Below, piece after piece: positions 2,505-55,996 of a stretch of 64,000 nucleotides of DNA. Position numbers and translations under genes: made by a program. The stretch lies in contig JAMCRP010000001.1 of the NCBI GenBank assembly GCA_023380635.1, forward strand, positions 469,200 to 533,199, in the 5' to 3' direction. The number at the start of each line of letters is the position of its first letter. The stretch's first letter is position 1. The notes beneath the pieces were generated by a model that worked only from the letters and a program-made list of their open reading frames with translations, had not been told where the DNA came from and did no database searches. Origin of the DNA: Patescibacteria group bacterium. Its GTDB lineage: Bacteria > Patescibacteriota > Microgenomatia > JAMCZE01.

Positions 2505-3291
2505 CATTATTGAGGTTACCAATCTGGTTAAAAAGTTTGGCGATTTTACCGCCGTAAATAATATCTCTTTTAGCGTTGCCGCCGGAGAAGTCTTTGCTTT
2601 TTTGGGTCCTAACGGCGCCGGTAAAACCACCACGATTAAAATGCTGACGACTTTATTGGCCCCCACTTCCGGCAAAATTTTAATTAACGGTCAAAGCCCG
2701 GCAGAAAACCAGGATGCGGTGCGCAAATCCTTTGGCATTGTCTTTCAGGATCCCAGCCTGGATGACGAGCTGACCGCCTACGAAAATCTGCAGTTCCACG
2801 CGGTTTTGTACGGCGTACCGCCGGCGGTGGCTAAAAAAAGAATCGACGAACTCCTCACTATTGTCGAACTGGTCGACCGGCGTAATCACTTAGTTAAAAC
2901 TTTTTCCGGCGGGATGAAACGAAGACTGGAAATTGCCCGCGGCTTACTTCACCACCCCAAAGTCTTTTTTCTGGATGAACCTACCCAGGGCCTGGACCCG
3001 CAAACCCGAAACCGTATCTGGCAATATGTCCTGGATTTAAACAAGCGCGAGGGAATTACTATTTTCTTCACCACTCACTACATGGAAGAGGCTGACCGGG
3101 TAGCTCAAAGAATTGCCATTATTGATCACGGCAAGATTATTAACACTGGCACGCCGGCTCAGCTTAAAAAGCAAACCCAAAGCAAAACCCTGGAAGAAGC
3201 CTTTTTAGAATTAACCGGGCACGAAATCCGCGACGAAGAGGGAACGGCCATTGAAAGAATGCGCATGGGGAGACGGTTATGGCACCGATAA
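2497..3291 (+). CDS. ABC transporter ATP-binding protein (ABC-2/DrrA-like)
   Basis: Walker A GPNGAGKTT, signature FSGGMKRR, Walker B FLDEPTQGLD. Confidence 0.85.
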   Translation: MNSIIEVTNLVKKFGDFTAVNNISFSVAAGEVFAFLGPNGAGKTTTIKMLTTLLAPTSGKILINGQSPAENQDAVRKSFGIVFQDPSLDDELTAYENLQFHAVLYGVPPAVAKKRIDELLTIVELVDRRNHLVKTFSGGMKRRLEIARGLLHHPKVFFLDEPTQGLDPQTRNRIWQYVLDLNKREGITIFFTTHYMEEADRVAQRIAIIDHGKIINTGTPAQLKKQTQSKTLEEAFLELTGHEIRDEEGTAIERMRMGRRLWHR

Positions 3292-3298
3292 ATATTTT

Positions 3299-4045
3299 AT
3301 GAAAGCAATCTACATCCTTTGGCTTAGACAATTGAAACGGTACTTGCGCTCGCGATCAAGAATCGTGGGGTCTTTAGGCCAGCCAATCCTGTTTTTAGTG
3401 GCTTTAGGCTTTGGGCTGGGGCCGACTTTTGCCCGGGCCGGAGAGGGAAGTTACCTTCAGTTTTTAGCCCCGGGGGTCATTGCCATGAGCGTGTTGTTTA
3501 CGGCAATTTTTGCCGGAGTTGAAGTCATTTGGGATAAGCAGTTTGGCTTTCTTAAAGAAACTCTGGTTGCCCCCGTTCCGCGCTGGCAGATTATGACCGG
3601 TCGCACTTTGGGCGGCGCCACCGTTGCGGCCCTCCAAGGTTTAATCGTCTTTGTGATTGCCCTGTTTGCCGGCTTCCGGTTTCCGCCCCTGGTCAATTTG
3701 ATTCCCGCCGCCATTGTGGTCGTTTTGATTGCTTTACTGTTTACCGGATTGGGAACAGCTATCGCTTCAGTTTTGGACGACATGCAGGGTTTTCAGCTGA
3801 TTATGAATTTTTTGGTCATGCCGCTTTTCTTTCTTTCCGGCGCCCTGTTTCCGCTGCGGGGGCTGCCCGAGCCATTGTCCTTGATTACTATCTTAAACCC
3901 CCTGTCATACGGCGTTGACGGTTTGCGGGGGAGTCTGACCGGAATTTCGGCTTTCAGCTTTTCCTCAGATTTATCTGTTTTAATGGTAATTACTCTGATT
4001 ATTATTGCTATCGGCAGCTATTTGTTTAGCAAAATCGAGATATGA
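3299..4045 (+). CDS. ABC-2 type transporter permease
   Basis: Six predicted TM helices and a typical ABC-2 N-terminus starting at the internal ATG at 3299. The ORF-track start at 3251 would overlap the upstream gene. Confidence 0.7.
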   Translation: MKAIYILWLRQLKRYLRSRSRIVGSLGQPILFLVALGFGLGPTFARAGEGSYLQFLAPGVIAMSVLFTAIFAGVEVIWDKQFGFLKETLVAPVPRWQIMTGRTLGGATVAALQGLIVFVIALFAGFRFPPLVNLIPAAIVVVLIALLFTGLGTAIASVLDDMQGFQLIMNFLVMPLFFLSGALFPLRGLPEPLSLITILNPLSYGVDGLRGSLTGISAFSFSSDLSVLMVITLIIIAIGSYLFSKIEI

Positions 4046-4464
4046 CGAATAAAATAATCTACGGTTTAATTACTCTGGCCCTTGCCGGTTTGGCTTTTTA
4101 CGGCGGGATTAAATACCAACAAAAACAGGCTGCCGCCCGAATAAGCAGTTTTTCCCAAAACGGCGGGAATAACGGCCAAATACGCACCCGCTTTGGAAAC
4201 GGCGCCAACGGGGGAGCCGTGCGCGGAGAAGTTCTCTCGGTTGACGCCAATGGACTGACCGTGAAAAATCGGGACGGGAGCAGCAGAATCGTTTTGTTTT
4301 CCGGCAGCACGGTCATTAATAAGGCCGACGTCGCCACTAAGGATGACATTAAAACCGGAAGCACCGTGGCCGTCTTTGGCACTATCAACTCTGACGGCAG
4401 CATTACCGCTCAGAACGTGCAGATAAATCCCGTCCAACCGCCCCCGCCAAACCCCACCCAATAA
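4042..4464 (+). CDS. Hypothetical membrane-anchored or secreted protein (DUF5666-like beta-rich domain)
   Basis: N-terminal TM/signal segment and a Gly/Asn-rich region. Start overlaps the upstream stop (ATGA). Confidence 0.4.
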   Translation: MTNKIIYGLITLALAGLAFYGGIKYQQKQAAARISSFSQNGGNNGQIRTRFGNGANGGAVRGEVLSVDANGLTVKNRDGSSRIVLFSGSTVINKADVATKDDIKTGSTVAVFGTINSDGSITAQNVQINPVQPPPPNPTQ

Positions 4465-4542
4465 GTACCTATAGTTTGAAGTTGTGATATAGTTGGATAT
4501 ATTCGGGTTTTTTCTGGTTAGAACTGCTTAGCACTCTCCTGC

Positions 4543-4567
4543 TCCCCTTGCTAATCGGGGGTTTTTC
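4543..4567 (+). terminator. Weak intrinsic-terminator-like hairpin followed by TTTTT
   Basis: CTCCCC(4542-4547) / GGGGG(4557-4561) stem with a 9-nt loop, then GTTTTT. It lies downstream of the 4042-4464 gene. Confidence 0.3.
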
Positions 4568-4654
4568 GAGCCTGTTCTTGCCCAACTCTTACCCCCTTTT
4601 CAGTTTTAATTTCCAATCAAATTTTAGACTGCGGAACTAAGGAGGTGACAAATA

Positions 4655-4822
4655 ATGGATAACGACCAAAATAACAGCAACGCCGTTAATTTTACTCCGG
4701 ACCAATCCGGTCTAGAAAAGCCTGTCGAAAAGGCCCAGGAAAATGCCAAGACTAAAGGCTCTGAAAAAACACGCCAGAAAGGCGCGGGCCGCAAGTCGCG
4801 GTCTCGCAGCCACCGTAAGTAA
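4655..4822 (+). CDS. Small ORF (55 aa, basic C-terminus) with a strong RBS, overlapping the 5' end of mscL in another frame
   Basis: AGGAGGTG lies 7 nt upstream of the ATG at 4655. Below the 60-aa cutoff of the ORF track. Ends at TAA 4820-4822. Confidence 0.3.
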   Translation: MDNDQNNSNAVNFTPDQSGLEKPVEKAQENAKTKGSEKTRQKGAGRKSRSRSHRK

Positions 4823-5141
4823 TTCCCTGCTCGGCCGTCAAGCACGGGGCTTTGTCCGCTTTATCCGCAAGCAGGGCATTTTTAGCTTGGCGGTGGGTTT
4901 TGTTTTGGGCGGAAAAGTTTCCCAACTGGTGTCCGCCTTGGTTGCGGACATTATTAATCCCCCGCTAGGCGTGGTTTTAGGTAAGGTTAATCTTCGTGAC
5001 GCTGTTTTAACTTTAGGCAGCGTCAAAATTTTATGGGGCGATTTTGTCAGCAACCTGATTGATTTTCTGATTGTGGCGACGGTCGTCTACATCGGCACTG
5101 TCATTATCCAGGCGGAACCAGTTGCAAAAGAAGAAAAGTAG
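4743..5141 (+). CDS. mscL: Large-conductance mechanosensitive channel MscL
   Basis: GFVRFIRKQGIFSLAVGFVLGG...SALVADIINPPLG...FLIVATVVYI matches the MscL S1/TM1/TM2 pattern. The first 30 codons are an unusual basic extension, so the start is uncertain. Confidence 0.75.
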   Translation: MPRLKALKKHARKARAASRGLAATVSNSLLGRQARGFVRFIRKQGIFSLAVGFVLGGKVSQLVSALVADIINPPLGVVLGKVNLRDAVLTLGSVKILWGDFVSNLIDFLIVATVVYIGTVIIQAEPVAKEEK

Positions 5142-5176
5142 GTCTACGATAATTGTATGGTTGCTGAAACCGACAC

Positions 5177-5410
5177 ATGATGTATTCTGCCTTTCCCCGC
5201 TTTTGGCCGATGATGGGCGTTTCTGTTTTTGCTTGGCTTCTGCCTCTGGTGATTTTAGATCTTATCCTAAAAGGAATTGCCTTATGGCGGGCCGCCAGAA
5301 ACAATCAGTCCTACTGGTTTGTCGCTCTGTTAATTTTTAACACTGTTGGGATTCTTCCCTTAGTCTACCTGGCTTTTTTTCAGAAAACCCAAACCAGTAA
5401 AAAGAAATGA
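5177..5410 (+). CDS. PLDc_N-type small membrane protein (N-terminal membrane module of cardiolipin-synthase-like enzymes)
   Basis: 77 aa with two TM helices; W..A..N...YW...LLIFN.VGILPLVYL pattern of PF13396. Confidence 0.5.
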   Translation: MMYSAFPRFWPMMGVSVFAWLLPLVILDLILKGIALWRAARNNQSYWFVALLIFNTVGILPLVYLAFFQKTQTSKKK

Positions 5411-5961
5411 CCCTGAAATCTACCCGGACTCTGGAAGATCTGCGCCCGGTCCTTAAAGACCCTTTTTCTGTTGGCCCGAATGTGGTCTACCGGGTGTTTA
5501 CGAATTTGGAAAATCCCGGATGGAAACAGTGGATAAACATGACCCAAATCGGCCCGGGAATTTTTCAGGATGAATACGCTAAGACCTTTGGTCATTACCA
5601 TAACAACAATAACCCGGAAACCTACTTTGTGGAGGAAGGCAACGGAGTTTTGGAACTGCAAAAAGGGTTTGAGGCTAGTGAAGTGCTGCTTATTAAAGCT
5701 CAAAAGGGTGACCGGGTGGTAATTCCTGTCGGGTATGGCCATGCCTGGATTAACACCGGAAACGCCGACCTGGTTCTCTTGGATGACTGGGCCACCCCCC
5801 ATTCGCCTGAGGATTATAAATGGATAGAAGACCATCACGGCTTGGCCTATTACATTACCGACGGTAATAGCAAAGTTAGGGCCACCCCTAACCCGAACTA
5901 CAAAAACCTTCCGGAACCCAAATGGCTGACGGCTAAAGAGTTTAATGAACAAAAGCTTTAA
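5407..5961 (+). CDS. pgiA: Cupin-type glucose-6-phosphate isomerase (archaeal-type cPGI)
   Basis: Collinear with the Pyrococcus cPGI sequence: TFGHYH vs TKGHFH, EGNGVLELQ vs KGKGGMLLQ, GYGHAWINTGN vs YWAHRTVNIGD; metal ligands His/His/Glu/His are conserved. Confidence 0.75.
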   Translation: MTLKSTRTLEDLRPVLKDPFSVGPNVVYRVFTNLENPGWKQWINMTQIGPGIFQDEYAKTFGHYHNNNNPETYFVEEGNGVLELQKGFEASEVLLIKAQKGDRVVIPVGYGHAWINTGNADLVLLDDWATPHSPEDYKWIEDHHGLAYYITDGNSKVRATPNPNYKNLPEPKWLTAKEFNEQKL

Positions 5962-6910
5962 GGCTTCCTTTTACCTTCTGGTTTTTGCCGCGGTTACTTT
6001 TTACTTCGCCTTTTTTCGGCCGCCACCCAAGACTTCTTATTCCTCCGCCGAGGTTTTGGGCGAAAATACCAATTTAACTTTATTTATCGAGCCGGACGAC
6101 GGCCGGGCGCCTTTATTAAATTACATTAACGCCAGCCAAAACCAAATTCTTACCGAGGTTTACATTCTTTCCGACAAGGAAATCGGTTCGGCTTTGGCTT
6201 CCCGCAGCGCGATTACCAAGATACTTCTCGAAGAGCACCCGTTTGGCGGGGGTAATTTCAACCAAAAAACGAAAGATTGGCTGGGAAATATCGTCCGCTG
6301 GACCAATCCGGATTTTACCCTTACTCACCAAAAATCAATGGTCTTCGACGATGCGGTCGTCTGCATTTTAAACATGAATTTATCCGCCACGGCTTTTAGT
6401 AAAAACCGGGAGTACAACATCTGCAGCGAAAATAAAGAAGATGTCGCCGAGGTAACCAATATTTTTAACGCCGATTGGAACCGAAAGGACTTCTCTCCGG
6501 CTGATCCAAATTTGGTCGTCTCCCCCGTTAACTCCCGGGCCAAATTAACGGCGTTTATTTCCGGAGCCCAAAAATCCCTGGATATCGAGATGGAGGTGGT
6601 GAGCGACGACCAGATGGTTAATCTTTTAACTGATAAAGCTAAAAATATTCCGGTGCAAATCCTGGTTCCCAATCCAAAAGATGTTGCCAATTCTCCCGTT
6701 CCCGGCGCGCAGGTGAAATCTCTGAAAAAACCCTACCCTCATGCCAAATTAATTATCGTTGATGGAGTGCGGGCTTATACCGGCTCAGTCAACTTAACTA
6801 CCCAAAGCCTGGATCAAAACCGCGAGCTGGGCATCCTAGTTTCTCAGACAGATATCTTAGACCGACTTAACCAGACATTTGCAAAAGATTGGAATAATGC
6901 TAATCTATAA
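5945..6910 (+). CDS. Phospholipase D-family protein with two HKD motifs (cardiolipin synthase-like catalytic unit)
   Basis: HQKSMVFDD and HAKLIIVDG...GSVNLT (HxK(x)4D...GSxN) motifs. N-terminal TM/signal segment. Confidence 0.75.
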   Translation: MNKSFKASFYLLVFAAVTFYFAFFRPPPKTSYSSAEVLGENTNLTLFIEPDDGRAPLLNYINASQNQILTEVYILSDKEIGSALASRSAITKILLEEHPFGGGNFNQKTKDWLGNIVRWTNPDFTLTHQKSMVFDDAVVCILNMNLSATAFSKNREYNICSENKEDVAEVTNIFNADWNRKDFSPADPNLVVSPVNSRAKLTAFISGAQKSLDIEMEVVSDDQMVNLLTDKAKNIPVQILVPNPKDVANSPVPGAQVKSLKKPYPHAKLIIVDGVRAYTGSVNLTTQSLDQNRELGILVSQTDILDRLNQTFAKDWNNANL

Positions 6911-6913
6911 AAG

Positions 6914-7480
6914 ATGGACTTTATCAAAAAACATCTTCTCTGGGTCATTGCCGGAGCGGTTGTTTTTCTGCTGGTGGTTACCGCCGGCTATTACAACTCT
7001 TTTGTGGCCGCCAACAACGCCATCGACGGCCAATGGAAACAGGTCGAAGTGCAATATCAAAGGCGCTTTGATTTAATCCCCAATTTGGTTGAAGCTACCA
7101 AGGGAATTATGCAGCAGGAACAGACGGTTTTTGGCAACATCGCCGCCGCCCGGGCTAACTACGCCGGAGCCCAAACCCCTGACCAGAAAGTGGCCGCTGC
7201 CAATCAGGTCGAGTCTGCTCTGGGCAGATTATTGGCTATCGTCGAAAATTATCCTCAGCTTAAATCCGACCAAGCGGTTCTGCGCCTGCAGGATGAACTG
7301 GCGGGAACCGAAAACCGGATTGCCGTGGAAAGGCGACGCTATAACGATCTGGTTCAGCAATATAACACCAACATCAGCACTATTCCGGGCAATATTTTTG
7401 CCGGCATATTTGGTTTCAAGTCCCGGCAGTACTTTAACGCTACTCCCGGATCAGAAAACGCTCCCCAGGTAAAGTTCTAA
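6914..7480 (+). CDS. lemA: LemA family protein
   Basis: N-terminal TM; QWKQVEVQYQRRFDLIPNLVE...NRIAVERRRYNDLVQQYN is the canonical LemA signature. Confidence 0.8.
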   Translation: MDFIKKHLLWVIAGAVVFLLVVTAGYYNSFVAANNAIDGQWKQVEVQYQRRFDLIPNLVEATKGIMQQEQTVFGNIAAARANYAGAQTPDQKVAAANQVESALGRLLAIVENYPQLKSDQAVLRLQDELAGTENRIAVERRRYNDLVQQYNTNISTIPGNIFAGIFGFKSRQYFNATPGSENAPQVKF

Positions 7481-8403
7481 TGAAAAAACTTTTCCTTGTC
7501 TTCTTCTCTACCTTTCTTCTTTTCTTCCTTACTTCCTCCGTTTTTGCCGCTTCTTTTCCCGCTCCCACCGGTTTTGTCAATGACTTTGCGGGAATTTTAA
7601 CCGCTTCGCAAAAAGCCGACTTAGAACAAAATCTCCAAAATTTTCAAAACCAGACCGGCAACGAAATTGCCGTGGTCACGATTAAAGATTTGGGCGGCGA
7701 TACGATTGAAAATATGGCTGTTAAATTGTTTGAACAGTGGAAAATCGGCCAAAAGGGCAAAGATAACGGCGCCCTTCTACTAATTGCCGTAAACGACCGT
7801 AAACTGCATATCGAAGTGGGTTACGGCTTGGAACCGGCGCTGACTGACGCCCGGGCCGGCGACATTATTAGAAACGTCATTACTCCTAAATTTAAACAAA
7901 ACGACTATTACGGCGGGATAAAAGATGGGATTACTATTATGGAAGAGACCATTTCCAACTCCAATAATTCCCCCGCTTCTGGGACCACGACAACTTCTAA
8001 AACTTTAAGTTTCGGTTCGGTTTTTAACGCGGTGGTGTTTGTGGGAATTTTCGGCTGGTTTTTGATTCCATTGGCTATTTACCTGGCCGCCTTTTTCGGT
8101 CGCAGTAAAAGAATCTGGCCGGGAGGTTTGGTTGGGCTCTTGGCCGGTTTGGTAATCGGTGTAGTTTTTAGCTATCTGGCCGCCGCTATCTTGGGTGTCA
8201 TCTTGGGGTTAATAGGTTTGTTTCTTGATTGGGTCTTATCTAAAAATTATGACAGGCTGATAAAACTTGGGAAAAGCACCCGGTGGCACCATACCTGGGG
8301 CGGGTTTTATACCGGCGGCTTCGGGGGTGGTGGCAGTGGGGGCGGTTTTGGAGGGTTTGGCGGAGGCTCTTCCGGCGGCGGCGGTTCTTCCGGCAGCTGG
8401 TAG
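7480..8403 (+). CDS. TPM-domain protein (TLP18.3/Psb32/MOLO-1 family) with TM helices and a Gly-rich tail
   Basis: Signal peptide; FVNDFAGIL...IAVVTI...LLLIAVNDRKLHIEVGYGLE TPM fold signature; poly-Gly C-terminus. Start overlaps the LemA stop. Confidence 0.75.
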   Translation: MKKLFLVFFSTFLLFFLTSSVFAASFPAPTGFVNDFAGILTASQKADLEQNLQNFQNQTGNEIAVVTIKDLGGDTIENMAVKLFEQWKIGQKGKDNGALLLIAVNDRKLHIEVGYGLEPALTDARAGDIIRNVITPKFKQNDYYGGIKDGITIMEETISNSNNSPASGTTTTSKTLSFGSVFNAVVFVGIFGWFLIPLAIYLAAFFGRSKRIWPGGLVGLLAGLVIGVVFSYLAAAILGVILGLIGLFLDWVLSKNYDRLIKLGKSTRWHHTWGGFYTGGFGGGGSGGGFGGFGGGSSGGGGSSGSW

Positions 8404-8416
8404 TGTATACTGAAGT

Positions 8417-8807
8417 TATGAACAATTTTTTCCACAAACTGGCTAATAATATTGCCAATCTTGCCGGTTCTCCCTGGGCTTTTATCCTGGCCGTAGTCTT
8501 TATCCTTGGCTGGGTGGTTACCGGCCCGATTTTCGGTTTCTCCGACACCTGGCAGTTAATTATTAATACTGTCACCAATATCGTGGCCCTTCTTATGGTC
8601 TTTATCATCCAAAATACCCAAAACCGCGACTCCAAAGCGATAAATTTAAAACTCGACGAGCTTCTTAAGGGGGTTAAGGGCGCCCGCACCGGGATGGTGG
8701 ACATTGAAGATGTCACCGACGAGGAGCTGACCAGACTAGAGAAAGAATTTTCTGATATGCACCAGAAATATCGCGACGAACTCTCCCGCCGCCGGGCCAA
8801 AACCTAA
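8417..8807 (+). CDS. Low-affinity iron permease family protein (PF04120-like)
   Basis: FSDTWQLIINTVTNIVALLMVFIIQNTQNRDSKAINLKLDELL matches the family. Start taken at the internal ATG at 8417; the ORF-track N-terminal extension overlaps the TPM gene. Confidence 0.55.
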
Positions 8808-9385
8808 ACCCCCTTTTTCAGCGCCGTGGTCACAAAAATGTCCCGGTGATAGCGGCACGGACCGTATTTTTGTATGGCCGCCAAATGTTTTTTGGTCCCG
8901 TAGCCCTTATTAATTTTCCAGTGGTAGCGGCGAAATTCCTTGTGGAGTTGGCGCATAATTTTATCCCGTTCGACTTTTGCCACTATTCCCGCCAGGATTA
9001 CTTCCGGTATCGTCGCGTCTGCGTCAACGATGCTTTGTATCCTGTCGGTTTTACCCGCTACCCGGCCGATTTTTAGTTTTCCGTCAACAATATATTTATC
9101 AGTCTCTACCTTTTTAATTAACCGGCGAAAGATTTCTTTATTTGCCCAACCAATACCATGATTATTGATACTTCGCGCCGAAATAGTTTCGACAAGTATT
9201 ATTGCTCCAGATTTTCGTAATCGCCGGCATATCTCCTCTCGCTCCAGCGCCGTCAACAATTTTCCGTCTTTTAATTTATCCTTTTGTATCTTGTGTTTTG
9301 TTTCTTGGTTAATTACCACAGCAGCTGCCATGAGCGGACCGGCCAAGGCTCCCCGACCAGCTTCGTCTAATCCACAGATTACCAT
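8804..9385 (-). CDS. rnhB: Ribonuclease HII
   Basis: N-terminal ICGLDEAGRG catalytic-Asp motif; length 193 aa. Confidence 0.85.
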   Translation of the reverse strand: MVICGLDEAGRGALAGPLMAAAVVINQETKHKIQKDKLKDGKLLTALEREEICRRLRKSGAIILVETISARSINNHGIGWANKEIFRRLIKKVETDKYIVDGKLKIGRVAGKTDRIQSIVDADATIPEVILAGIVAKVERDKIMRQLHKEFRRYHWKINKGYGTKKHLAAIQKYGPCRYHRDIFVTTALKKGV

Positions 9386-9400
9386 GTCTTGAATTATAGT

Positions 9401-9431
9401 ATCCGTGATAATCCGTTACTAATCCGTGTTA
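9401..9431. repeat. Three phased direct repeats (ATCCGT, spacing 10-11 bp) in the divergent rnhB / prgI-like promoter region
   Basis: ATCCGTGATA ATCCGTTACTA ATCCGTGTTA at 9401, 9411 and 9422. Confidence 0.4.
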
Positions 9432-9467
9432 ATCAAAAAATGTGGCTCTGTGAAAATCTAAACCCTA

Positions 9468-10826
9468 TTGTTTTTCATATTGGGCTTGCTATTCTGGTTG
9501 ATAATGGAGCAACACGCTGTCCCCCAGGATATCACCGGCTTCAAGTTTAAGCTTGTCGGCGACATGACCCTCAAACAATTTGGCGAGTTGGCCGGTGGGA
9601 CGGTTATTGCCTATCTCTTTTTTGCTTCCAACTGGAACCCGCTTTTAAAATGGCCCGGGGTCCTCTTTTTTGGTTTCCTGGGCTTTGCCCTGGCTTTTTT
9701 GCCGATCGAAGAACGCCCACTGGATATCTGGATCGTGAATTTTTTGAAGGCAATTTACCAGCCAACGCTTTACGTCTGGAAAAAGGGGGCCGTCACCCCG
9801 GCTTTCACTTCTGCTGTCAGTCCTAATCCCGGTCATGTTCCAACCAATCCCCAACCGGCAGTTATGCCTTGGCCGTTCACCGAACCGCAACCCGCAACCA
9901 AACCCGCGGCGCCCACCCCGCCGCCACCGGTAACCCCCGCTTCTCAGCCAGCCGCGCCCATGCCTCAAGTTTCTCCTGGTCCGGTAGCTGCTCCTCCGGC
10001 TCCAAAACCCGAAGCGGCGCCAAGCCCGAAACCGTCCGCCATCCAGCCACAGGCTCCTTTTCCGGCTGCCCAAAACGGGCCCACCATCTCCATTGAGGAC
10101 CTGCAAAAGCTACGCGATCAGAAGATGGCAGAACTTCAGGGCATTACTAAAAGAATGGAAAAGGCCCAGACGGACCTCAAAGCCGATCTTTACAAAGCCC
10201 AAAACGGCCCGCGGGTAGTTACCGTCGACGACCTGGCTCGCCGCCGGGATGAGAAAAAACAGGCCGACGAAACCCAGCTCCAGTCGCTGTTGGAAGAAAA
10301 CACCAAACTGATATCAGAAATCGAAAGCATTAAAACCCGGATTCAGGCTCTCGCCGGCTCGGACACCACCCAGCTCCAAACTCAGTTAAATAATCTTACC
10401 ACTTCGCAGCGGGGTTTAAGCGGACAAATTTCTCTTATTCAAACCCAACTAGAAGGCAAAAAACCGGAAGAAAAGCCCGTTGCTACCCAACCAACCCCCG
10501 ACAACCAGGTTAAGGTTGTCGAAAAACCCGTAGCCCGGGAAGCCAGCATTTCTCTAACTGATGTCCCCAATATTATTAACGGGACAGTAACCAACGAGAC
10601 CGGCGTTCCTCTGGACAGCGCAATTTTGATCATTAAGGATAAAGCCGGCAATTCCATCCGGGCCCTTAAAACGAACCAGATTGGCCAATTTATCGCCAGC
10701 ACCCCGCTCGAAAACGGGACTTACTATTTAGAGTTTGAGCGTCAAGGTTACGTTTTTGATGTCCTGGAAATTACTTTAAACGGGAAAGTTATCCAACCCT
10801 TAGAAATTCATGGCCGACACAGTTAA
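9468..10826 (+). CDS. PrgI/VirB3-like membrane protein with Pro-rich linker, coiled coil and C-terminal CarboxypepD_reg-like beta-sandwich
   Basis: Two N-terminal TM helices as in PrgI-family proteins that precede VirB4/PrgJ. C-terminal GTVTNETGVPLDSAILIIKDKAGN...GTYYLEFERQGY. TTG start. Confidence 0.45.
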   Translation: MFFILGLLFWLIMEQHAVPQDITGFKFKLVGDMTLKQFGELAGGTVIAYLFFASNWNPLLKWPGVLFFGFLGFALAFLPIEERPLDIWIVNFLKAIYQPTLYVWKKGAVTPAFTSAVSPNPGHVPTNPQPAVMPWPFTEPQPATKPAAPTPPPPVTPASQPAAPMPQVSPGPVAAPPAPKPEAAPSPKPSAIQPQAPFPAAQNGPTISIEDLQKLRDQKMAELQGITKRMEKAQTDLKADLYKAQNGPRVVTVDDLARRRDEKKQADETQLQSLLEENTKLISEIESIKTRIQALAGSDTTQLQTQLNNLTTSQRGLSGQISLIQTQLEGKKPEEKPVATQPTPDNQVKVVEKPVAREASISLTDVPNIINGTVTNETGVPLDSAILIIKDKAGNSIRALKTNQIGQFIASTPLENGTYYLEFERQGYVFDVLEITLNGKVIQPLEIHGRHS

Positions 10827-14555: not shown

Positions 14556-14692
14556 TATACGATCTTAATAGTTTTTTTGCAACTTTCGTCTTTTTCTATT
14601 TCCAACTAGTAGTAACAGTAGTAGGCATTGTGAGTAAGTGACTAAAAACGGCGGGAACTGTGTATAGATTGTCTGTTACGGATTTTTTTCGT

Positions 14693-14833
14693 TGTGGATA
14701 TCTCTTAGGGGTGATTGTGAATATCTTTGAGGACAAACCTTCGGGGTTTGGGGATAAGTTGATAAGTTTTGGGGTTCTCCACTTATCCACAACTAGTTAA
14801 AAAAATATTCAGGAGTTATCCACAACTAGTTAA
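14693..14833. promoter_or_regulatory. oriC DnaA-box cluster and AT-rich region between dnaA and dnaN
   Basis: Perfect TTATCCACA at 14783-14791 and 14816-14824, each within an 18-bp direct repeat TTATCCACAACTAGTTAA. Degenerate boxes TGTGGATAT (14693), TGTGAATAT (14716) and GGGGATAAG/TTGATAAG (14746-14765). AT-rich stretch at 14570-14640. Confidence 0.6.
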
Positions 14834-16243: not shown

Positions 16244-16305
16244 AAAATTCAAGGTATCTTACTAGGTCATCTTTACTCTAATAAACAGAGAATTAAACTT
16301 ATATC

Positions 16306-49695: not shown

Positions 49696-49713
49696 AATTT
49701 GAAATTTCAAATT
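49696..49713. promoter_or_regulatory. Perfect 18-bp palindrome AATTTGAAATTTCAAATT at the deoC start
   Basis: Self-complementary; lies between the LOG stop (49690) and deoC. Confidence 0.4.
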
Positions 49714-50382
49714 GTGGATATTGCTAAATATCTCGACTTAGCTAATCATCATCCCAACTCTACTGAGGCGGATATTAAAAACATCTGCGACAAGGTAAAA
49801 GAATACGGCTTTAATTCCGCTTTTGTAAATCCGTTCTATATTCAGTACGCGAAAAGTTTTGGAGTAAAGGTCGGAACGGTAATCTCCTTCCCGTTGGGTC
49901 AGGAAACTCTATCCGTAAAAAGTGGCTGCGCGGAAAGCTACGCCTCGCTGGGGGCTGACGAGCTGGATGTTTCCTTAAATGTTGGGTACATCAAGTCGGG
50001 AAAATATACCGAGAGTTTGGTGGAAATGAAAGCGGTGGTGGAAGCAGCCAGAAGGATTAATCCTAAGATAATCATTAAATTTATTCCGGAAACCGGTTAT
50101 TTAACCCCCGATGAGATTAAGCAGACGGCAGAAATCATGGCCGATTCTGGCGCGGATTTTTTCAAAACCTGTTCGGGGCTGGGGCCGCGGGGAGCTACCG
50201 TCGAAGATATCAAACTAGTTCGCGAAGCCATTGGTAAGAAGCTAAAGATAAAAGTGGCCGGTGGCATTGAAACTTTTACCCAGGCAAAATCCTTTATCGA
50301 TGCCGGAGCGGACCGCATTGGAACTTCTCATGCGGTGGAAATTACGACTAAGTCCGCCGCTACAAAATTCTCCGGAGAGTAG
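49699..50382 (+). CDS. deoC: Deoxyribose-phosphate aldolase
   Basis: DeoC N-terminal pattern (ANHHPNSTEADIKNICDKVKEYGF..AFVNP), Schiff-base region KIKVAGGI. The start is either TTG 49699 or GTG 49714. Confidence 0.75.
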   Translation: MKFQIVDIAKYLDLANHHPNSTEADIKNICDKVKEYGFNSAFVNPFYIQYAKSFGVKVGTVISFPLGQETLSVKSGCAESYASLGADELDVSLNVGYIKSGKYTESLVEMKAVVEAARRINPKIIIKFIPETGYLTPDEIKQTAEIMADSGADFFKTCSGLGPRGATVEDIKLVREAIGKKLKIKVAGGIETFTQAKSFIDAGADRIGTSHAVEITTKSAATKFSGE

Positions 50383-50396
50383 TGTAATATGAATAT

Positions 50397-51314
50397 ATGC
50401 TGCCCGAGTTTGTTTGCGTGGGGGACGCGACCCGCGATTTTTTCATTTTTCCTGAAAGCCTGACCGTAACCAACGGCAAACTGGAGCTGGAATACGGGGC
50501 CAAAATTCCGGTTTCCGACATTGCCTGGTCGCTGGGCGGCAACGCGGCCAATGTTTCCGTGGGACTGTCCCGGCTGGGAATAAACGCTGCCTTGGTAACC
50601 ATCTTTGGCGATGACGACCGGGGAGTCTGGATTAAACGGGAACTAATGAAAAATAATGTCGTTTTAGACTATTCTGTAATTGATCCGGCGCGCCAGTCCA
50701 ATCTATCGACGGTGATCGTGGTCGGCGGCGACCGGACAATTTTAAGCTATCACGCTCCAACAACTCAAAAAATCGCTAAAATCCCTGAAACTAAGTGGCT
50801 GTATCTGACCTCGTCTGCCGGAAAAAGTTCCGACGAAACCTTTGCGGCGATAGAAACTTTCCTGACTGCCCGCGGCCAATCGGGCGGTCTCTGCCCCAAA
50901 ATTGCCTTTAACCCCAATATGCAGGATTTAAAGAAGGGCCGGGAATATCTCCAATCGATTTTAGCAGTGACCGAAGTTTTAATCCTTAATAAGGAAGAGC
51001 TGGAAACTTTAATCGGGGAAGTGACAGAAGAAAAGATGCGGGAACTAGGACCAAAAATAATTGCCGTGACTGACGGACCCAACGGGGCCGGAATTTTTGA
51101 TGGCCAAAAGTATTGGCAAAAACCTTCTGTCGGCGGTAAAGCAGTTGAAGCCACCGGAGCCGGAGATGCCTTTAGCAGCGGCTTTCTGGCCGCGCTGTAT
51201 TACGGTAAAAATCTGGAAGAGGCCCTCGATTGGGGACTGCGAAATTCAGGTTCTGTTATTAAGAGGGTTGGAGCCATAGAAGGTCTCCTGGATAAAAATG
51301 CTATCTCAATTTGA
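50397..51314 (+). CDS. PfkB-family carbohydrate/nucleoside kinase (ribokinase-like)
   Basis: GGNAANVSVGLSRLG and GAGDAF motifs. Confidence 0.7.
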   Translation: MLPEFVCVGDATRDFFIFPESLTVTNGKLELEYGAKIPVSDIAWSLGGNAANVSVGLSRLGINAALVTIFGDDDRGVWIKRELMKNNVVLDYSVIDPARQSNLSTVIVVGGDRTILSYHAPTTQKIAKIPETKWLYLTSSAGKSSDETFAAIETFLTARGQSGGLCPKIAFNPNMQDLKKGREYLQSILAVTEVLILNKEELETLIGEVTEEKMRELGPKIIAVTDGPNGAGIFDGQKYWQKPSVGGKAVEATGAGDAFSSGFLAALYYGKNLEEALDWGLRNSGSVIKRVGAIEGLLDKNAISI

Positions 51315-51362
51315 AATTTGAATTTTTCAATTTGAATTTAATTTCAAATTTTAAATTTCAAA
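51308..51362. repeat. AT-rich block of TTTGAAATT / AATTTCAAA inverted motifs upstream of the aldolase gene
   Basis: AATTTGAAATTTGAATTTTTCAATTTGAATTTAATTTCAAATTTTAAATTTCAAA; related to the deoC palindrome and to the AAATTCCAAA repeat family. Confidence 0.4.
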
Positions 51363-51387
51363 ATGAAAATTGGAGTTGAAAAAGAAA

Positions 51388-52251
51388 ATGGAAAATCAGT
51401 TAAAAGCTTTCCTAGACAAAGCAAATAGGGAAAAGTTTGCTATTGGCGCTTTTAATTTGGATAGCCTAGAGACTTTAAAAGCCCTAGCAGCAGCGGCGAA
51501 AAAAATGCGGGCGCCAGTTTTGGCGGAAGTGTCGCCGGGAGAAGTGGATTATATTGGTATCCGGAATTTAGCAGCTTTAATCGATAATACGAGACGCGAG
51601 TTTGGGATACCGCTTTTTCTCAATCTCGATCATGCGGAAGATACCGACAAGATAGAAGAAGCTTTAAATTTCGGTTTTGACCTGGTTCATTATGACGGCT
51701 CAAAGTTGTCGTTTGAGAAGAATTTGCATAACGCGATTCCGGTAGTCAAAGCCGCCCACGAAAAAGGAATTTTAGTCGAGGGAGAGTTTGATCATTTTCC
51801 CGGGAGTAGTGAACTGCATGAAGAGACTTCTACGGACTCAGAGCAGATTCTCACCGACCCCGAAATGGCCAGAGCCTTTGTAAAAGAAACGAGAATAGAT
51901 ATTTTGGCCGTTTTTGTCGGGAATAAGCACGGGGTCTATACCGACGGCAGCGAGCGGATTAATTTAGAGCATTTAAAAAAACTGCGGGAGATTTTACCTG
52001 ATACCTGGTTTTCGCTGCACGGCGGATCGGGGATACCAGCCGAAGATATCAGGGAAGCGATAAAGTACGGCATCGTTAAGGTGAACATTAATACCGAACT
52101 GCGCCTGGCCTGGCGGGAAAGTTTGGAAGTAACCCTTGGTGATAACCGCCATGAAGCTGCCTGGTACAAACTGACCGAAAAACCAATTGCTGAAGTAGAA
52201 AGGGTCATCGAAGAGAAGATCAAGGTTTTCTCCGGTTCTAGTTCAGATTGA
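51388..52251 (+). CDS. fba: Class II fructose/tagatose-bisphosphate aldolase family protein
   Basis: N-terminal FAIGAFN, metal-binding LDHAED/HGGSG motifs. The ATG at 51388 with a GGAG RBS is preferred to the TTG at 51370. Confidence 0.7.
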   Translation: MENQLKAFLDKANREKFAIGAFNLDSLETLKALAAAAKKMRAPVLAEVSPGEVDYIGIRNLAALIDNTRREFGIPLFLNLDHAEDTDKIEEALNFGFDLVHYDGSKLSFEKNLHNAIPVVKAAHEKGILVEGEFDHFPGSSELHEETSTDSEQILTDPEMARAFVKETRIDILAVFVGNKHGVYTDGSERINLEHLKKLREILPDTWFSLHGGSGIPAEDIREAIKYGIVKVNINTELRLAWRESLEVTLGDNRHEAAWYKLTEKPIAEVERVIEEKIKVFSGSSSD

Positions 52252-52534
52252 TTTCGTGATATATCTGCGGTTGACAGTCACTTCTTTTTTCTAATGGAAC
52301 AAGAAGATTACTACTGGACAGGTCGGCTATAAGTGCCAGGGTGAAGCATTCGCTGAAACTGATTCTGGATTGGATTGCCAGATAGAGCCGTTCGGCCCGA
52401 AGTTTATGTCTTTCGTGGGGTGTTTGGCCCGACCGGCGGCGGAAATTAAAGGATTCGTAAAATTCGTCCATGTTATCCGGATCATACAAAGAAACGAGTT
52501 GAAAAAGAAGCCGGTAAATGACACTATTAATTAG

Positions 52535-53473
52535 ATGAAAGTTGTAATTACTCACCATATTCCCGGACCGGCGGAAGAAATGCTAAAGAAGGCCGGATAC
52601 GAAGTGGCTGTCGGGTCAGACATGACCGGGGCGGACGCGCTCCTGACTTTACTTACCGATAAAATTGACGGGGCAGTGATGGATGCGGTAGGGGAGCAGC
52701 TAAAAATTATTGCCAATTATGCGGTCGGCTACGACAATATTGATCTGGAAGCGGCCACGCAGAGAAATATCTTTGTTACCAACACTCCGGGGGGTTTTGA
52801 AAGATCAGTGGCGGAACATACAATGCTTTTGCTTTTGGCGGTGGCCCGGAAACTTATTCCGGCGGACCGGTTTTTGCGCAATAACGAGTACGAGCGCTGG
52901 GACCCGAATTTATTTTTAGGAGACGAACTGTACGGGAAAACTTTGGGCATAGTCGGGTTGGGTCGAATCGGATCATGTGTTGCCAAAATTGCCGCGGCGG
53001 GGTTCGGAATGAAAATTTTATACCATTGTCACACTCCCAATCCTGACCTGGAAAAAGAGCTGGGGGCGACACATTACCTTAATTTGCTGGAAATGCTGCC
53101 TTTATGCGACGCGGTTTCTTTGCATGTGCCTCTGACTCCGGAAACGAAGCATTGCATCGGGCAAAAAGAGCTGTCCAGTATGAAAAAAACGGCCTATTTA
53201 ATTAATACTGCCCGGGGAGCAGTGGTGGACGAAATGGCTCTGGCAAAAGCCCTACAGGAAAATTGGATCGCCGGGGCGGGGTTGGATGTGTTTGAAGATG
53301 AAACCAAAACTGTCACGGAGTCAGAAAGTATTCTCTATAAACTAGATAATGTCGTCTTAACGCCGCACATCGCCTCAGCGACGATAGCCGCGAGAAACGA
53401 AATGAGCCGAATTGCTGCGGAAAATATTCTTACGGCTTTGTCCGGTCAGACGCCGAAGGATTTGGTGAAGTAG
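52535..53473 (+). CDS. D-isomer-specific 2-hydroxyacid dehydrogenase (glycerate/hydroxypyruvate or phosphoglycerate dehydrogenase-like)
   Basis: NAD-binding GIVGLGRIGSCVAKIA, catalytic R/E/H pattern. Confidence 0.75.
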   Translation: MKVVITHHIPGPAEEMLKKAGYEVAVGSDMTGADALLTLLTDKIDGAVMDAVGEQLKIIANYAVGYDNIDLEAATQRNIFVTNTPGGFERSVAEHTMLLLLAVARKLIPADRFLRNNEYERWDPNLFLGDELYGKTLGIVGLGRIGSCVAKIAAAGFGMKILYHCHTPNPDLEKELGATHYLNLLEMLPLCDAVSLHVPLTPETKHCIGQKELSSMKKTAYLINTARGAVVDEMALAKALQENWIAGAGLDVFEDETKTVTESESILYKLDNVVLTPHIASATIAARNEMSRIAAENILTALSGQTPKDLVK

Positions 53474-53726
53474 TTACTGCTCGTTGTTCGAAAGGACAAT
53501 GGCCCGAGCGGGTACAAACGCAAAACCTCTGGCCGGTTTTGACGAAGCCCCGGGAAAACTGATAGCCGCCTTCTGTAAAAATGGCCACTGAAACTCTCTG
53601 GCCTGCCATTGTCGGGTCCTGACAAGTTGTTTTGTCCGGCAGCCGCTTGTTTTTCCTTTCCGGCATCTGGCTATTTTCCCCCATTTTTCCGGAAAGTCAA
53701 TTTGGCTAATCGTCGAAATAATCGAG

Positions 53727-53954
53727 CTAAGATTTAGGGGCTGGATTAGGGGAGGGAATTTCGTTGATTGAAACCCGGCGAAAGTAGACAAAAGCGGATT
53801 TTTTGCCGTGGTCCGGGCAGACGGCTATTAAATCGTTTTCGGGGGGTAAGCGCCGGGAAGCAGTCACCACCCGGCGAAAATAATGGGGCCCTTCCGGACA
53901 TTCATTAGTAATCACAAATAAGCGTTTTTCGGTCATAGGCAGCTTTCTTGGCAA
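53727..53954 (-). CDS. Hypothetical small Cys/His-containing protein (75 aa)
   Basis: ORF only (NECPEGPH...VCPDHG). Confidence 0.2.
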   Translation of the reverse strand: MPRKLPMTEKRLFVITNECPEGPHYFRRVVTASRRLPPENDLIAVCPDHGKKSAFVYFRRVSINEIPSPNPAPKS

Positions 53955-53967
53955 ATGCTACACTAAA

Positions 53968-54975
53968 TTGATGATGAAACTGTTAACAATTGATCAGGAA
54001 GAAGTGAAGGAGAAGCGGGTGCTGGTAAGGGGAGATATTGACGTTCCGCTTCAAATTCCAAGCTCCAAATCCCAAATTCCAATAATCACTGACGACACAC
54101 GACTGCAAGCGATGAAACCGATGCTGGAATACCTTATTAAAAACGAGGCTTCGGAAATAATTCTTTGCGGACATATAGGCAGGCCGGAAGGGAAAGTGAG
54201 GCCGGAGTTGTCAACTAAACCCGTACAAGAATGGATAAGCGGGAAAGTGGGTAAGCAGGTAAGGGTTTTAGAAAACTTAAGGTTCGACCCGAGAGAAGAG
54301 GCCAATGATGAAAGTTTCGCGCGCGAATTGGCCGCAATGGCGGATATTTATATTAATGAAGCTTTTGCCGCTTGCGAGAGAGAACACGCGTCTATCGTCG
54401 GAGTACCGAAGCTGCTCCCGCATTACGCTGGATTTAGGTTAGCGGAAGAGGTAGAAAAATTAAGCAGGGTAATGGATAACCCGGAGAGACCAATGCTGGT
54501 AATTATCGGCGGAGCGAAGTTGGAAACAAAACTGCCGGTCATTACAAAAATGGTGCAAGCGGCTGATGAGATAGTTGTGGGAGGGAAATTGTTGGGGGAG
54601 ATAAAGGACAAAGGATCCGGAACAAAGATCCACTACCTTGAATTGACTGACGGCGGGAAAGATGTCACACTGGAATCAATCGACGCTAATAAAGAGGCGA
54701 TTGCCGACGCAGCGACCATTGTCTGGAACGGGCCGATGGGAGTAGTGGAGGACTACACCTTTCAAGTTGGCACTAGGAGAATCGCCGAATTGGTCGCCAG
54801 CAATCAAAAGGCGAATAAGATTATCGGTGGCGGGGATACAATTGGATTTGTGAATAAGTTGGGGTTATTAGATAAGTTTCAGTGGGTGAGCACGGGCGGA
54901 GGGAGCATGCTGAAATTTTTAGCCGGGGAAAAACTACCCGGCATTGAAGCACTTTATGATCAGACTGGCAATTAA
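53968..54975 (+). CDS. pgk: Phosphoglycerate kinase
   Basis: KRVLVRGDIDVPL...ITDDTRL, GHIGRPEG, GGGDT motifs; 335 aa. Confidence 0.85.
   Translation: MMMKLLTIDQEEVKEKRVLVRGDIDVPLQIPSSKSQIPIITDDTRLQAMKPMLEYLIKNEASEIILCGHIGRPEGKVRPELSTKPVQEWISGKVGKQVRVLENLRFDPREEANDESFARELAAMADIYINEAFAACEREHASIVGVPKLLPHYAGFRLAEEVEKLSRVMDNPERPMLVIIGGAKLETKLPVITKMVQAADEIVVGGKLLGEIKDKGSGTKIHYLELTDGGKDVTLESIDANKEAIADAATIVWNGPMGVVEDYTFQVGTRRIAELVASNQKANKIIGGGDTIGFVNKLGLLDKFQWVSTGGGSMLKFLAGEKLPGIEALYDQTGN
54049..54087 (+). repeat. AAATTCCAA-family repeat inserted in frame in the pgk N-terminal loop
   Basis: TTCAAATTCCAAGCTCCAAATCCCAAATTCCAATAATC encodes QIPSSKSQIPII, which is absent from canonical Pgk between DVPL and ITDDTR. 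Confidence 0.55.
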
Positions 54976-55996
54976 CGGTTACGGGCGGATTGGCCGGGTG
55001 GCTCATCGGGTGATTTTGGAAAGATTTTCCGACCAGATAGAGATTGCCGCGATTAACGGTGGCGCTTCCACGGATACGGTTGGCTGGGCCTACCTTCTGA
55101 AATATGACACGGCGTACGGGATTTTGAATAATCATCTGGTTGCCGGCGAGCCGGGAAAACTGGTCGTTGACGGAAGAGACATTCCTTTTTTAACGGAAAA
55201 GGATCCGGCCAAATTGCCCTGGAAAGATCTTAATATCGATGTAGTGCTCGAATGCACCGGTCAATTTACTACGGCGGAAAAAATTAAACCCCATCTGGAT
55301 GCCGGAGCCAAAAAAGTAGTTTTGTCCGCGCCGGCTAAAGACAGCACCATTAAAACTTTTGTTCTGGATGTCAATTTGGATCCCGGAGTCAAAACAATGT
55401 CCGGAGCTTCAAACTTACCTGCCGATCAAGTAATTTCTAACGCTTCCTGCACGACCAACTGCATTTCCCCGGTGGCTCAGATTATGGTCGAGAAATTTGG
55501 CGTTAATAAGGCCATGATGACCACCATGCACGCCTACACTTCCGACCAAAGGCTTCAGGATGGGGGCCACAAAGATTACCGCCGGGCGCGGGCAGCCGGC
55601 CAAAACATTATCCCAACCACGACCGGAGCCGCCATTGCCGCCACCGAAACCGTGCCGGAATTAAAAGGTCTGTTTACCGGGGTTGCCATAAGAGTTCCGG
55701 TGATCGTGGGGTCGCTTTCCGATTTTACTTTTCATTTAAAGCGGACTACGACCGTCGAAGAAGTAAACGGTGTTTTGAAAACAGCGGCTGAAAGCCCGCG
55801 GTACAAAAATGTCCTGGAAGTATCCAGCGACCCCCTGGTTTCCTCGGATATCGTCGGCAATCCGCACTCGGCTATAGTCGATTTGTCATTGACTCAGGTT
55901 GCCGGCGGGGATTTAGTTAAGGTTTTTGCCTGGTATGATAACGAATGGGGTTATGCAAACAGATTGGTCGAAGAAGCGATATTAGTCGGGAGCTAA
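54956..55996 (+). CDS. gap: Glyceraldehyde-3-phosphate dehydrogenase, type I
   Basis: INGYGRIGR, catalytic SCTTNC, WYDNEWGY. Start taken at the ATG at 54956. Confidence 0.9.
   Translation: MIRLAINGYGRIGRVAHRVILERFSDQIEIAAINGGASTDTVGWAYLLKYDTAYGILNNHLVAGEPGKLVVDGRDIPFLTEKDPAKLPWKDLNIDVVLECTGQFTTAEKIKPHLDAGAKKVVLSAPAKDSTIKTFVLDVNLDPGVKTMSGASNLPADQVISNASCTTNCISPVAQIMVEKFGVNKAMMTTMHAYTSDQRLQDGGHKDYRRARAAGQNIIPTTTGAAIAATETVPELKGLFTGVAIRVPVIVGSLSDFTFHLKRTTTVEEVNGVLKTAAESPRYKNVLEVSSDPLVSSDIVGNPHSAIVDLSLTQVAGGDLVKVFAWYDNEWGYANRLVEEAILVGS

Follow-up and report, generated by a model that had tools for sequence, protein, structure and literature searches.

We analysed a stretch of 64,000 nucleotides (hereafter, the window) from a Patescibacteria group bacterium (assembly GCA_023380635.1, contig JAMCRP010000001.1, positions 469,200 to 533,199 of the forward strand), which contains a run of three tightly packed genes on the plus strand. 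The first open reading frame (ORF1, 5177..5410, +, 77 aa) encodes a small membrane protein of the DUF5652 family; the second (ORF2, 5407..5961, +, 184 aa) encodes a soluble protein of the cupin-type phosphoglucose isomerase (cPGI) family; and the third (ORF3, 5945..6910, +, 321 aa) encodes an enzyme of the phospholipase D (PLD) superfamily with two HKD motifs. Their NCBI names are "DUF5652 family protein", "cupin domain-containing protein" and "phospholipase D-like domain-containing protein", respectively. A previous sequence-only reading had described the run as a cardiolipin synthase (Cls) split into a PLDc_N membrane protein and a catalytic protein, with a cPGI gene between them. Our results point, with considerable confidence, to three independent genes in a dense plus-strand run, whose juxtaposition reflects synteny inherited within a sub-lineage together with genome compaction, and not a split cardiolipin synthase.

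The reported overlaps of 4-17 nt between the three plus-strand ORFs were reproduced along with their coordinates: ORF1 and ORF2 share 4 nt (an ATGA stop/start), and ORF2 and ORF3 share 17 nt, the start codon of the PLD gene lying inside the end of the cupin gene. The plus-strand series around the locus comprises ABC transporter genes, a gene for a DUF5666 protein, MscL, ORF1-3, LemA, TPM and a low-affinity iron permease. Overlaps are common throughout the window: in a greedy gene call, 16 of the 46 same-strand neighbour pairs overlap (35%), a further 10 lie at most 20 nt apart, and the coding density is 94%. For this genome, overlap is accordingly a poor indicator of functional coupling. The GC content across the region (45-47%) is inside the range of the window. 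A scan of positions 2300-9500 for promoters and terminators returned promoter-like sites at chance level (10 vs 8.7 expected), with two weak ones upstream of MscL, and no promoter or terminator signal inside the three-gene run. The absence of an internal promoter-like site is compatible with co-transcription and otherwise uninformative; judged from the overlaps, co-transcription of ORF1-3 is plausible.

The PLDc_N label (PF13396) given earlier to the first gene did not hold. ORF1 matches DUF5652 (PF18893) with 83.9 bits (cutoff 23.4), and gave no Pfam match to PF13396 even at E<=10; as a positive control, residues 22-59 of E. coli ClsA match PF13396 with 31 bits. Hydropathy indicates two hydrophobic segments in ORF1 (residues ~9-29 and ~49-69). 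The protein has the same length as the members of the DUF5652 family, shares their conserved motif (WKGxALWRAARNNQxYWFVALLxxNTVGILP) and shows nothing notably different from them. Using hhalign, we compared a 30-sequence DUF5652 alignment with residues 1-75 of E. coli ClsA (probability 1.6%) and with a profile built from the N-termini of seven diverse genuine Cls proteins, encoded on plasmids and chromosomes (probability 0.8%, E 0.07), the E-values across both comparisons being 0.03-0.07. The stretch aligned by hhalign (R-x-x-Q...W, a hydrophobic run and G-I-x-x-Y-L, corresponding to the second helix of PLDc_N) is without statistical support, and presumably is the resemblance behind the earlier label. 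A tblastn search with ORF1 against annotated plasmids found no PLDc_N-annotated match. All 46 clusters of DUF5652 homologues are 64-135 aa long and have DUF5652 as their sole precomputed Pfam domain; a literature search for DUF5652 yielded no relevant mention. ORF1 is a DUF5652 two-helix membrane protein, unrelated to either of its neighbours.

The third gene does encode two HKD motifs, as had been read from its sequence. ORF3 is matched twice by PLDc_2/HKD (PF13091; 108 bits), and 32 homologues all retain H128/K130/D135 and H266/K268/D273/G280/S281/N283. Its first HKD motif is without the usual G-S-x-N tail and reads L-N-M-N at this place, where only N145 is conserved. At least 578 homologues exist; among the 120 listed, most are 300-370 aa long, some are labelled "cardiolipin synthase A/B" by JGI, and no PLDc_N or DUF5652 annotation occurs. 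All scores against more specific models were low: 38.4 bits for TIGR04265 cardiolipin synthase (cutoff 290), 27.8 bits for NF009107 (cutoff 787), 19.0 bits for NF008427 (cutoff 281), 45.9 bits for DrmC (cutoff 133) and 30 bits for NucT (cutoff 297). The AlphaFold2 model of ORF3 (pLDDT 94.7) shows a bilobed PLD fold preceded by an N-terminal helix (residues 3-24). A hydrophobic N-terminal segment is present in 117 of 119 ORF3 homologues, and in 115 of these 117 its N-flank is more positive than its C-flank (mean net charge +3.3 vs +0.6). From this positive-inside pattern, the catalytic domain of ORF3 is predicted to lie outside the cytoplasm. The ORF3 family is thus a large and uncharacterised group of helix-anchored, predicted outward-facing PLDs, whose named members come from Patescibacteria.

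These observations bear directly on the split-enzyme proposal, in which DUF5652 would be the detached PLDc_N of a cardiolipin synthase, ORF3 its catalytic half, and the cPGI a horizontally acquired gene inserted between the two. Tight packing and motif likeness made this reading tempting: ORF1 resembles the second helix of PLDc_N at the motif level (R-x-x-x-x-x-W, then the hydrophobic run and G-I-x-x-Y-L), exactly where hhalign aligns the two, and some ORF3 homologues bear the JGI label of a cardiolipin synthase. Neither homology nor co-occurrence supports it, however. ORF3 is not an anchorless catalytic half, having its own membrane helix (~3-24), as do nearly all of its homologues, and its TIGR04265 score is far below the cutoff for a cardiolipin synthase. 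Compared with E. coli ClsA, ORF3 shares the two-HKD catalytic architecture and the membrane association, but it is shorter (321 vs 486 aa), has one N-terminal helix in place of the two-helix PLDc_N, lacks the G-S-x-N tail of the first HKD, and has no PF13396 match. We then looked at DUF5652 genes elsewhere, in 80 metagenomic loci (in 50 of which the downstream sequence extends for at least 1.2 kb), and found no PLD-family gene nor any ORF with an HKD motif within 5 kb of DUF5652. Reciprocally, DUF5652 was found within 6 kb of the cupin gene in 0 of 80 cupin loci, nor was it found at the nine other PLD-linked loci. In a fusion ("Rosetta stone") test, neither domain was found attached to the other in any of the 46 clusters of DUF5652 or in the 120 PLD homologues listed. 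DUF5652 together with PLD was seen only in the window and in one related locus, L165, where the order DUF5652, cupin, PLD recurs; in both, MscL precedes DUF5652. Finally, the pattern of the cupin family in the candidate phyla radiation (CPR), described below, is vertical and does not suggest a recent insertion. The split-cardiolipin-synthase reading is hence largely refuted, and we regard it as hardly credible.

As for the substrate of ORF3, a lipid appears most likely, nucleic acid being clearly the less probable choice and any other substrate an unlikely one; these preferences, like the topology, are predictions from sequence and models, and count as a caution against our interpretation of this gene. 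The lipid-active PLD of Serratia plymuthica AS9 (7E0M, PMC8004604) is the best match of ORF3 both in sequence-profile search (E 8e-19) and in fold (TM 0.71), followed among the folds by vaccinia F13 (TM 0.70), the C-terminal domains of PPK1 and PLD3/4. ORF3 shares with the Serratia enzyme the compact bacterial two-HKD form, but the two are only 16-17% identical, and 7E0M (~390 aa) is without the N-terminal anchor arrangement. Held at the membrane by its single N-terminal helix, with the two-HKD domain predicted on the outer side of the cytoplasmic membrane, ORF3 would most likely hydrolyse phospholipid head groups or exchange them, with a covalent phosphohistidine as the intermediate. Lipid enzymes of the PLD type that lack PLDc_N and work on the outer face of an envelope have a precedent in ClsO of Acinetobacter, a surface-exposed PLD-type cardiolipin synthase that is an outer-membrane lipoprotein of a diderm (PMC12846801); the likeness is one of analogy only and concerns the predicted location of the ORF3 catalytic domain, ORF3 being helix-anchored where ClsO is a lipoprotein.

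A possible, if doubtful, alternative is that ORF3 is not a lipid enzyme but an extracytoplasmic PLD nuclease of the Nuc/NucT kind, used for nucleotide salvage or DNA uptake. The sequence-profile search also ranks Nuc (1e-14), Zucchini/MitoPLD and NucT high, the PLD3/4 exonucleases are among the matches, partial NCBIfam and PADLOC matches point to NucT and DrmC, and an outward-facing catalytic domain would suit this role; moreover, a PrgI/TraC/TraG-type cluster lies a few kb downstream of ORF3, and one plasmid homologue adjoins ligD and type IV secretion system (T4SS) genes. Set against this, 7E0M outranks the nucleases in both sequence and fold, and every nuclease-model score is far below its cutoff. 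In addition, Nuc, NucT and similar bacterial PLD nucleases form homodimers of single-HKD chains, unlike ORF3, which is a fused two-HKD chain at the membrane surface. The plasmid contexts of PLD homologues are mixed overall and uninformative on the substrate. We also considered, and rejected, a DISARM DrmC or other defence nuclease: the PADLOC matches are partial and confined to the HKD region, the neighbours are MscL, LemA and TPM, and ORF3 is membrane-anchored; PADLOC found no defence family match in the four other proteins scanned. Some CPR bacteria have been suggested to take up and interconvert external phospholipids (PMC6031116). If this holds here, the ORF3 family would be a candidate for the remodelling of (host) lipids, or for nucleic-acid salvage.

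Between these two membrane proteins lies ORF2, whose membership of the cPGI family is supported by sequence, metal ligands and predicted fold, in agreement with the earlier call of a cupin PGI collinear with that of Pyrococcus. It matches PF06560 (GPI) with 80.7 bits (cutoff 20.7), well above the generic cupin models (Cupin_2, 29 bits; Cupin_1, 21 bits). Its best PDB sequence match is the Thermococcus litoralis PGI (1J3P, E 1.2e-9); the P. furiosus PGI (PfPGI) is also found, and unrelated cupins appear only from E 0.004. Residues 20-166 are collinear with the cPGIs of T. litoralis and P. furiosus. The His/His/Glu/His site is retained, with H63, H65, E71 and H112 of ORF2 aligned to His88, His90, Glu97 and His136, the Mn ligands of PfPGI (PMC6627849). 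These four ligands are invariant across 26 aligned family members, as are Y28, T46, E56, T60, G62, Y73, N116 and Y137, which in a pairwise alignment map to PfPGI Y52, T71, E81, T85, G87, Y99, N140 and Y160. The AlphaFold2 model of ORF2 has a pLDDT of 96 and a pTM of 0.92, and its top 12 PDB matches in Foldseek are all Pyrococcus/Thermococcus cPGIs or a design on that scaffold (E ~1e-12 to 1e-13, TM 0.71-0.74), the next fold being CapF (E 5e-6, TM 0.40).

Two signatures are reportedly characteristic of cPGIs since the work of Hansen et al. in 2005, the first said to read T-x3-P-x3-G-x-E-x3-T-x-G-H-x-H-x6-11-E-x-Y and the second P-P-x3-H-x3-N. The corresponding segments of ORF2 read T46-QIG-P50-GIF-Q54-D-E56-YAK-T60-F-G62-H63-Y-H65-NNNNP-E71-T-Y73 and P-V-GYG-H112-AWI-N116, and depart from the signatures at three points (Q for G, a 5-residue spacer, and PV for PP). 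In comparison with the characterised enzymes, P. furiosus PgiA (1X7N/1X82) and T. litoralis PGI (1J3P), ORF2 has the same PF06560 domain, cupin fold and His/His/Glu/His site, keeps the Thr, Glu, Thr, Gly, Tyr, Asn and Tyr residues around this site, and is of similar size (184 vs 189 aa). It differs in an N-terminus ~25 residues shorter, in a C-terminus ~18 residues longer with a conserved NLPEPKWLT motif, and in belonging to a CPR/DPANN subfamily with a mesophilic bacterial host, unlike the Pyrococcus/Thermococcus enzymes.

The region that fits least well is a loop near the active site. In PfPGI, Tyr152 and His158 are implicated in proton transfer and substrate contact (PMC6627849). In ORF2 this loop is remodelled, with Trp128 at the place of the Tyr and the His (H132) shifted, and in the nearest relatives of the window the Tyr152 position is a His; these correspondences come from sequence alignment only. 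Together with an identity of only ~23-26% to the characterised cPGIs, from which the ORF2 type is separated by a long branch, and with the fact that no cPGI of the CPR/DPANN type has been assayed, this weighs against the assignment of a glucose-6-phosphate isomerase activity. An alternative would be that ORF2 has the cPGI fold but acts on mannose-6-phosphate or on a pentose/lyxose-type substrate, or has a non-isomerase cupin function, and the NCBI name commits itself to nothing more than a cupin domain. We find this unlikely, because the metal ligands are invariant along with T46, E56, T60, G62, Y73, N116 and Y137, because all 26 aligned members keep one His in the loop (either within W-x-x-[G/P]-H or at the Trp position), which looks like a maintained requirement in the alignment, and because, as detailed below, the neighbours of the gene in other genomes are specifically enzymes that use glucose-6-phosphate (G6P) and some CPR genomes have no other PGI type. 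The loop itself (window residues 126-137 in the alignment) occurs in two forms, a long one (W-x-x-[G/P]-H-x-P-x-D-Y) and a short one with the His at the Trp position (H-x-x-P-[K/Q]-x-D-Y). The short form is found in L161 and L165-L167; these are four of the five relatives in the sub-clade of the window, and in them too PLD lies directly downstream.

We also noted an antisense ORF of 190 aa (5380-5952, -) that covers the cupin gene almost exactly and is longer than it, so that a length-based gene caller takes it over the cupin. Given that the plus-strand product has a conserved family, a fold and a Pfam match, the antisense frame is probably a shadow ORF.

The distribution of the cupin PGI was studied in 80 loci of relatives from one-genome-per-species data, with their neighbours clustered; about 72 loci are of the Patescibacteria type (several with obviously wrong labels of metagenome-assembled genomes, MAGs), 6 are from DPANN archaea and 2 are others. 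Synteny counts in this sample are bounded by short contigs, and the MAG labels are noisy. Many of the titles of L001-L080 read "uncultured Gammaproteobacteria" or "uncultured Candidatus Saccharibacteria" (TPA MAGs), yet the cupins group with Patescibacteria; such titles look unreliable and should not be used for inferring the distribution of cPGI. The earlier reading held that cPGI is rare in bacteria and usually owed to horizontal transfer, a view that is outdated for this phylum. PF06560 PGIs were detected in about 74 bacterial species-level genomes in our scan, and the identity to the window protein follows taxonomy, with values of 53-45% in Microgenomates, 42-36% in WWE3, 35-30% in Giovannonibacteria and 37-28% in DPANN archaea (where the two higher values are partial matches). 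This decrease with taxonomic distance, together with an unremarkable GC content, argues against a recent transfer and for a long residence in the phylum.

These results are consistent with those of Jaffe et al. (2020, BMC Biol 18:69, PMC7304191), who described PF06560 PGIs scattered across CPR, with the CPR sequences sister to the archaeal ones, more than one PGI type in ~2% of genomes, and ~15 CPR genomes encoding only the PF06560 type. ORF2 is the same thing, a cupin PGI in Patescibacteria, where it is usually the only PGI type of the genome; the identification as cPGI is thus correct but not new. Their report highlights Nealsonbacteria, while the host of ORF2 belongs to a Microgenomates-type lineage, and it is without the gene-neighbourhood evidence (Zwf, PGM, ROK, PEP synthase-enolase) that we describe here.

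In seven cupin loci, from at least two sub-clades, the divergent adjoining gene is Zwf (glucose-6-phosphate dehydrogenase), at a distance of 54-159 nt; in L003 and L052 it is a ROK-family kinase gene, 45-75 nt away. In L051 and L053 a phosphoglucomutase/phosphomannomutase (PGM/PMM) gene lies directly upstream of the cupin and overlaps it. The gene order in L051 is PGM/PMM, cupin, a phosphoenolpyruvate (PEP) synthase-type enzyme and enolase. In both loci (L051:210-5814 and L053:18-1750) the cupin stands between PGM/PMM and an enzyme of the PEP synthase/PPDK type, with overlaps of 23-32 nt, forming a compact, translationally coupled glycolysis/gluconeogenesis operon around the cupin PGI. Apart from these, the genes that recur next to the cupin have housekeeping roles (SecG, SurA-like, UppS, RNase J and TrpRS). 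That different G6P-handling partners are found in different lineages supports a PGI function for the CPR/DPANN subfamily. The neighbourhood data thus provide new and independent support, based on context, for CPR/DPANN PF06560 proteins acting at the node of G6P and fructose-6-phosphate (F6P), which matters for the metabolic reconstruction of these reduced genomes.

The window itself contains glycolytic genes, as had been noted for pgk, gap and fba. A sugar-phosphate/glycolysis cluster at 49699..55996 (+, assigned by Pfam) comprises a DeoC-family aldolase, a PfkB kinase, a class II fructose-bisphosphate aldolase (FBA), a D-2-hydroxyacid dehydrogenase, phosphoglycerate kinase (PGK) and glyceraldehyde-3-phosphate dehydrogenase (GAPDH); PfkB, FBA, PGK and GAPDH lie at 50.4-56.0 kb, with 32 nt shared between PGK and GAPDH. 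Among the ORFs of at least 300 aa in the 64-kb window, which is part of a 559-kb contig, a conventional PGI (PF00342 or SIS type) was not found. ORF2 would then be a cytoplasmic metal-dependent cPGI that interconverts G6P and F6P, its divalent metal held by H63, H65, E71 and H112, with E71 as the counterpart of Pyrococcus Glu97, and it would connect hexose phosphates with the PfkB/FBA/GAPDH/PGK genes at a distance of 45 kb. Classical phosphofructokinase is usually absent in this lineage, and the PfkB kinase encoded just before FBA could take its place.

It remains to account for the adjacency of the cupin and PLD genes. Gene orders of relatives were obtained from exact-protein look-ups (L161-L169) and from the species-level loci. 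L161-L163 have malic enzyme, cupin, PLD (17-nt overlap), LemA, TPM, PrgI and TraC-like genes; L164 has cupin, PLD (17-nt overlap) and LemA; L166 has cupin and PLD (17-nt overlap); and L167 has cupin, PLD (32-nt overlap), three small ORFs and LemA. L165 has MscL, DUF5652, cupin (4-nt overlap), PLD (144-nt gap), LemA, one ORF, TPM and VKOR. LemA follows PLD in L161-L165 and L167. In L012 the cupin and PLD (6-nt gap) are followed by an Nramp-like gene (assigned by eye) and a PrgI-like gene. In L029 cupin and PLD are 1.4 kb apart, with three small unidentified ORFs between them, and in L034, L168 and L169 they are 3.7-4.7 kb apart, separated by a MacB-type ABC operon on the opposite strand (in L034 assigned by eye). 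Overall, PLD is present in 3 of the 80 species-level cupin loci, and also in the nearest relatives, L161-L167. In an unbootstrapped neighbour-joining tree, the window, L161 and L164-L167 form a single sub-clade, and in all of them PLD comes directly after the cupin; the other PLD-linked loci are scattered in this tree among Microgenomates branches without the linkage.

Since the synteny reaches as far as LemA, TPM, PrgI and TraC, it is the whole region that is conserved, not a two-gene module. The pattern is best read as eroding ancestral regional synteny involving many unrelated envelope genes. Three observations weigh against this interpretation: PLD lies directly downstream of the cupin throughout the sub-clade (window, L161 and L164-L167); the 17-nt overlap is kept in L161, L164 and L166 despite a cupin identity to the window of 47-61%; and L165 repeats the full order of MscL, DUF5652, cupin, PLD and LemA. 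The conservation of the overlap within the sub-clade could reflect selection for co-expression. Cupin and PLD might accordingly be a functional, translationally coupled pair in this sub-lineage, the cupin serving as an accessory or activator, for which E. coli YmdB-ClsC offers an analogy, or processing a sugar-phosphate head group that the PLD uses or releases. The arrangement is indeed common to all of the cupin sub-clade of the window, with PLD directly downstream in 7 distinct contigs and an overlap of 17 or 32 nt in 5 of the 7; still, 77 of the 80 species-level cupin loci lack PLD, the two genes are 1.4-4.7 kb apart in related genomes (with the opposite-strand ABC operon between them in three), the cupin partners elsewhere are glycolytic and pentose-phosphate genes, and the synteny extends over many unrelated flanking genes. 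Moreover, PLD is anchored and predicted to face outward and the cupin has no hydrophobic segment, so the two are predicted in different compartments, the cupin in the cytoplasm and the PLD domain outside it. We consider a functional pair quite improbable. A more specific version, in which by analogy the PLD would be a ClsO-like surface remodeller of host-scavenged lipids and the cupin its accessory or head-group processor, seems slightly less probable still. If true, such a lipid pairing would give a protein of the cPGI fold a second, lipid-linked role.

The reading that we favour is thus that of three independent genes, in a host that is a Microgenomates-type member of the Patescibacteria (CPR) carrying the run MscL, DUF5652, cupin, PLD, LemA and TPM. 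Novelty is low: each of the three adds a member to a kind already known, namely a cPGI of the sort published for CPR, a generic protein of the PLD superfamily and a DUF. What had been seen in the sequence earlier (the genes and overlaps, the HKD motifs, the cPGI and the distant glycolysis block) is confirmed except for the PLDc_N label, which had been given to a DUF5652 protein; of what had been concluded from it, the cPGI call stands, while the split cardiolipin synthase fails in both homology and co-occurrence tests.

The genes flanking the run encode envelope proteins. Upstream, the mechanosensitive channel MscL (4743..5141, +; PF01741, 69.1 bits) is a member of the syntenic block. Downstream, a LemA family membrane protein (6914..7480, +; PF04011, 196 bits) starts 4 nt past the PLD stop, and is followed by a TPM-domain membrane protein with a Gly-rich tail (7480..8403, +; PF04536, 158.6 bits), which usually accompanies LemA in the conserved block. 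The ORF of the low-affinity iron permease, as listed with a GTG start (8283-8807), overlaps the Gly-rich tail of TPM by ~120 nt; its true start is probably an internal Met near 8418, since the Pfam match starts at residue 50.

At a distance of 2.5 kb downstream of PLD lies a T4SS-like set (9468-13441) with PrgI-like and TraC-like genes and a TraG/VirB4-type P-loop ATPase; the spacing from PLD to PrgI/TraC recurs in L161, L012 and L029. A second coupling-protein-like ATPase is encoded at 60875-63238. The genes dnaN and dnaA adjoin each other on the minus strand (13416-16244), and a chromosomal replication origin is therefore probably located near 16.3 kb. The cumulative GC skew declines steadily over 1-14 kb of the window.

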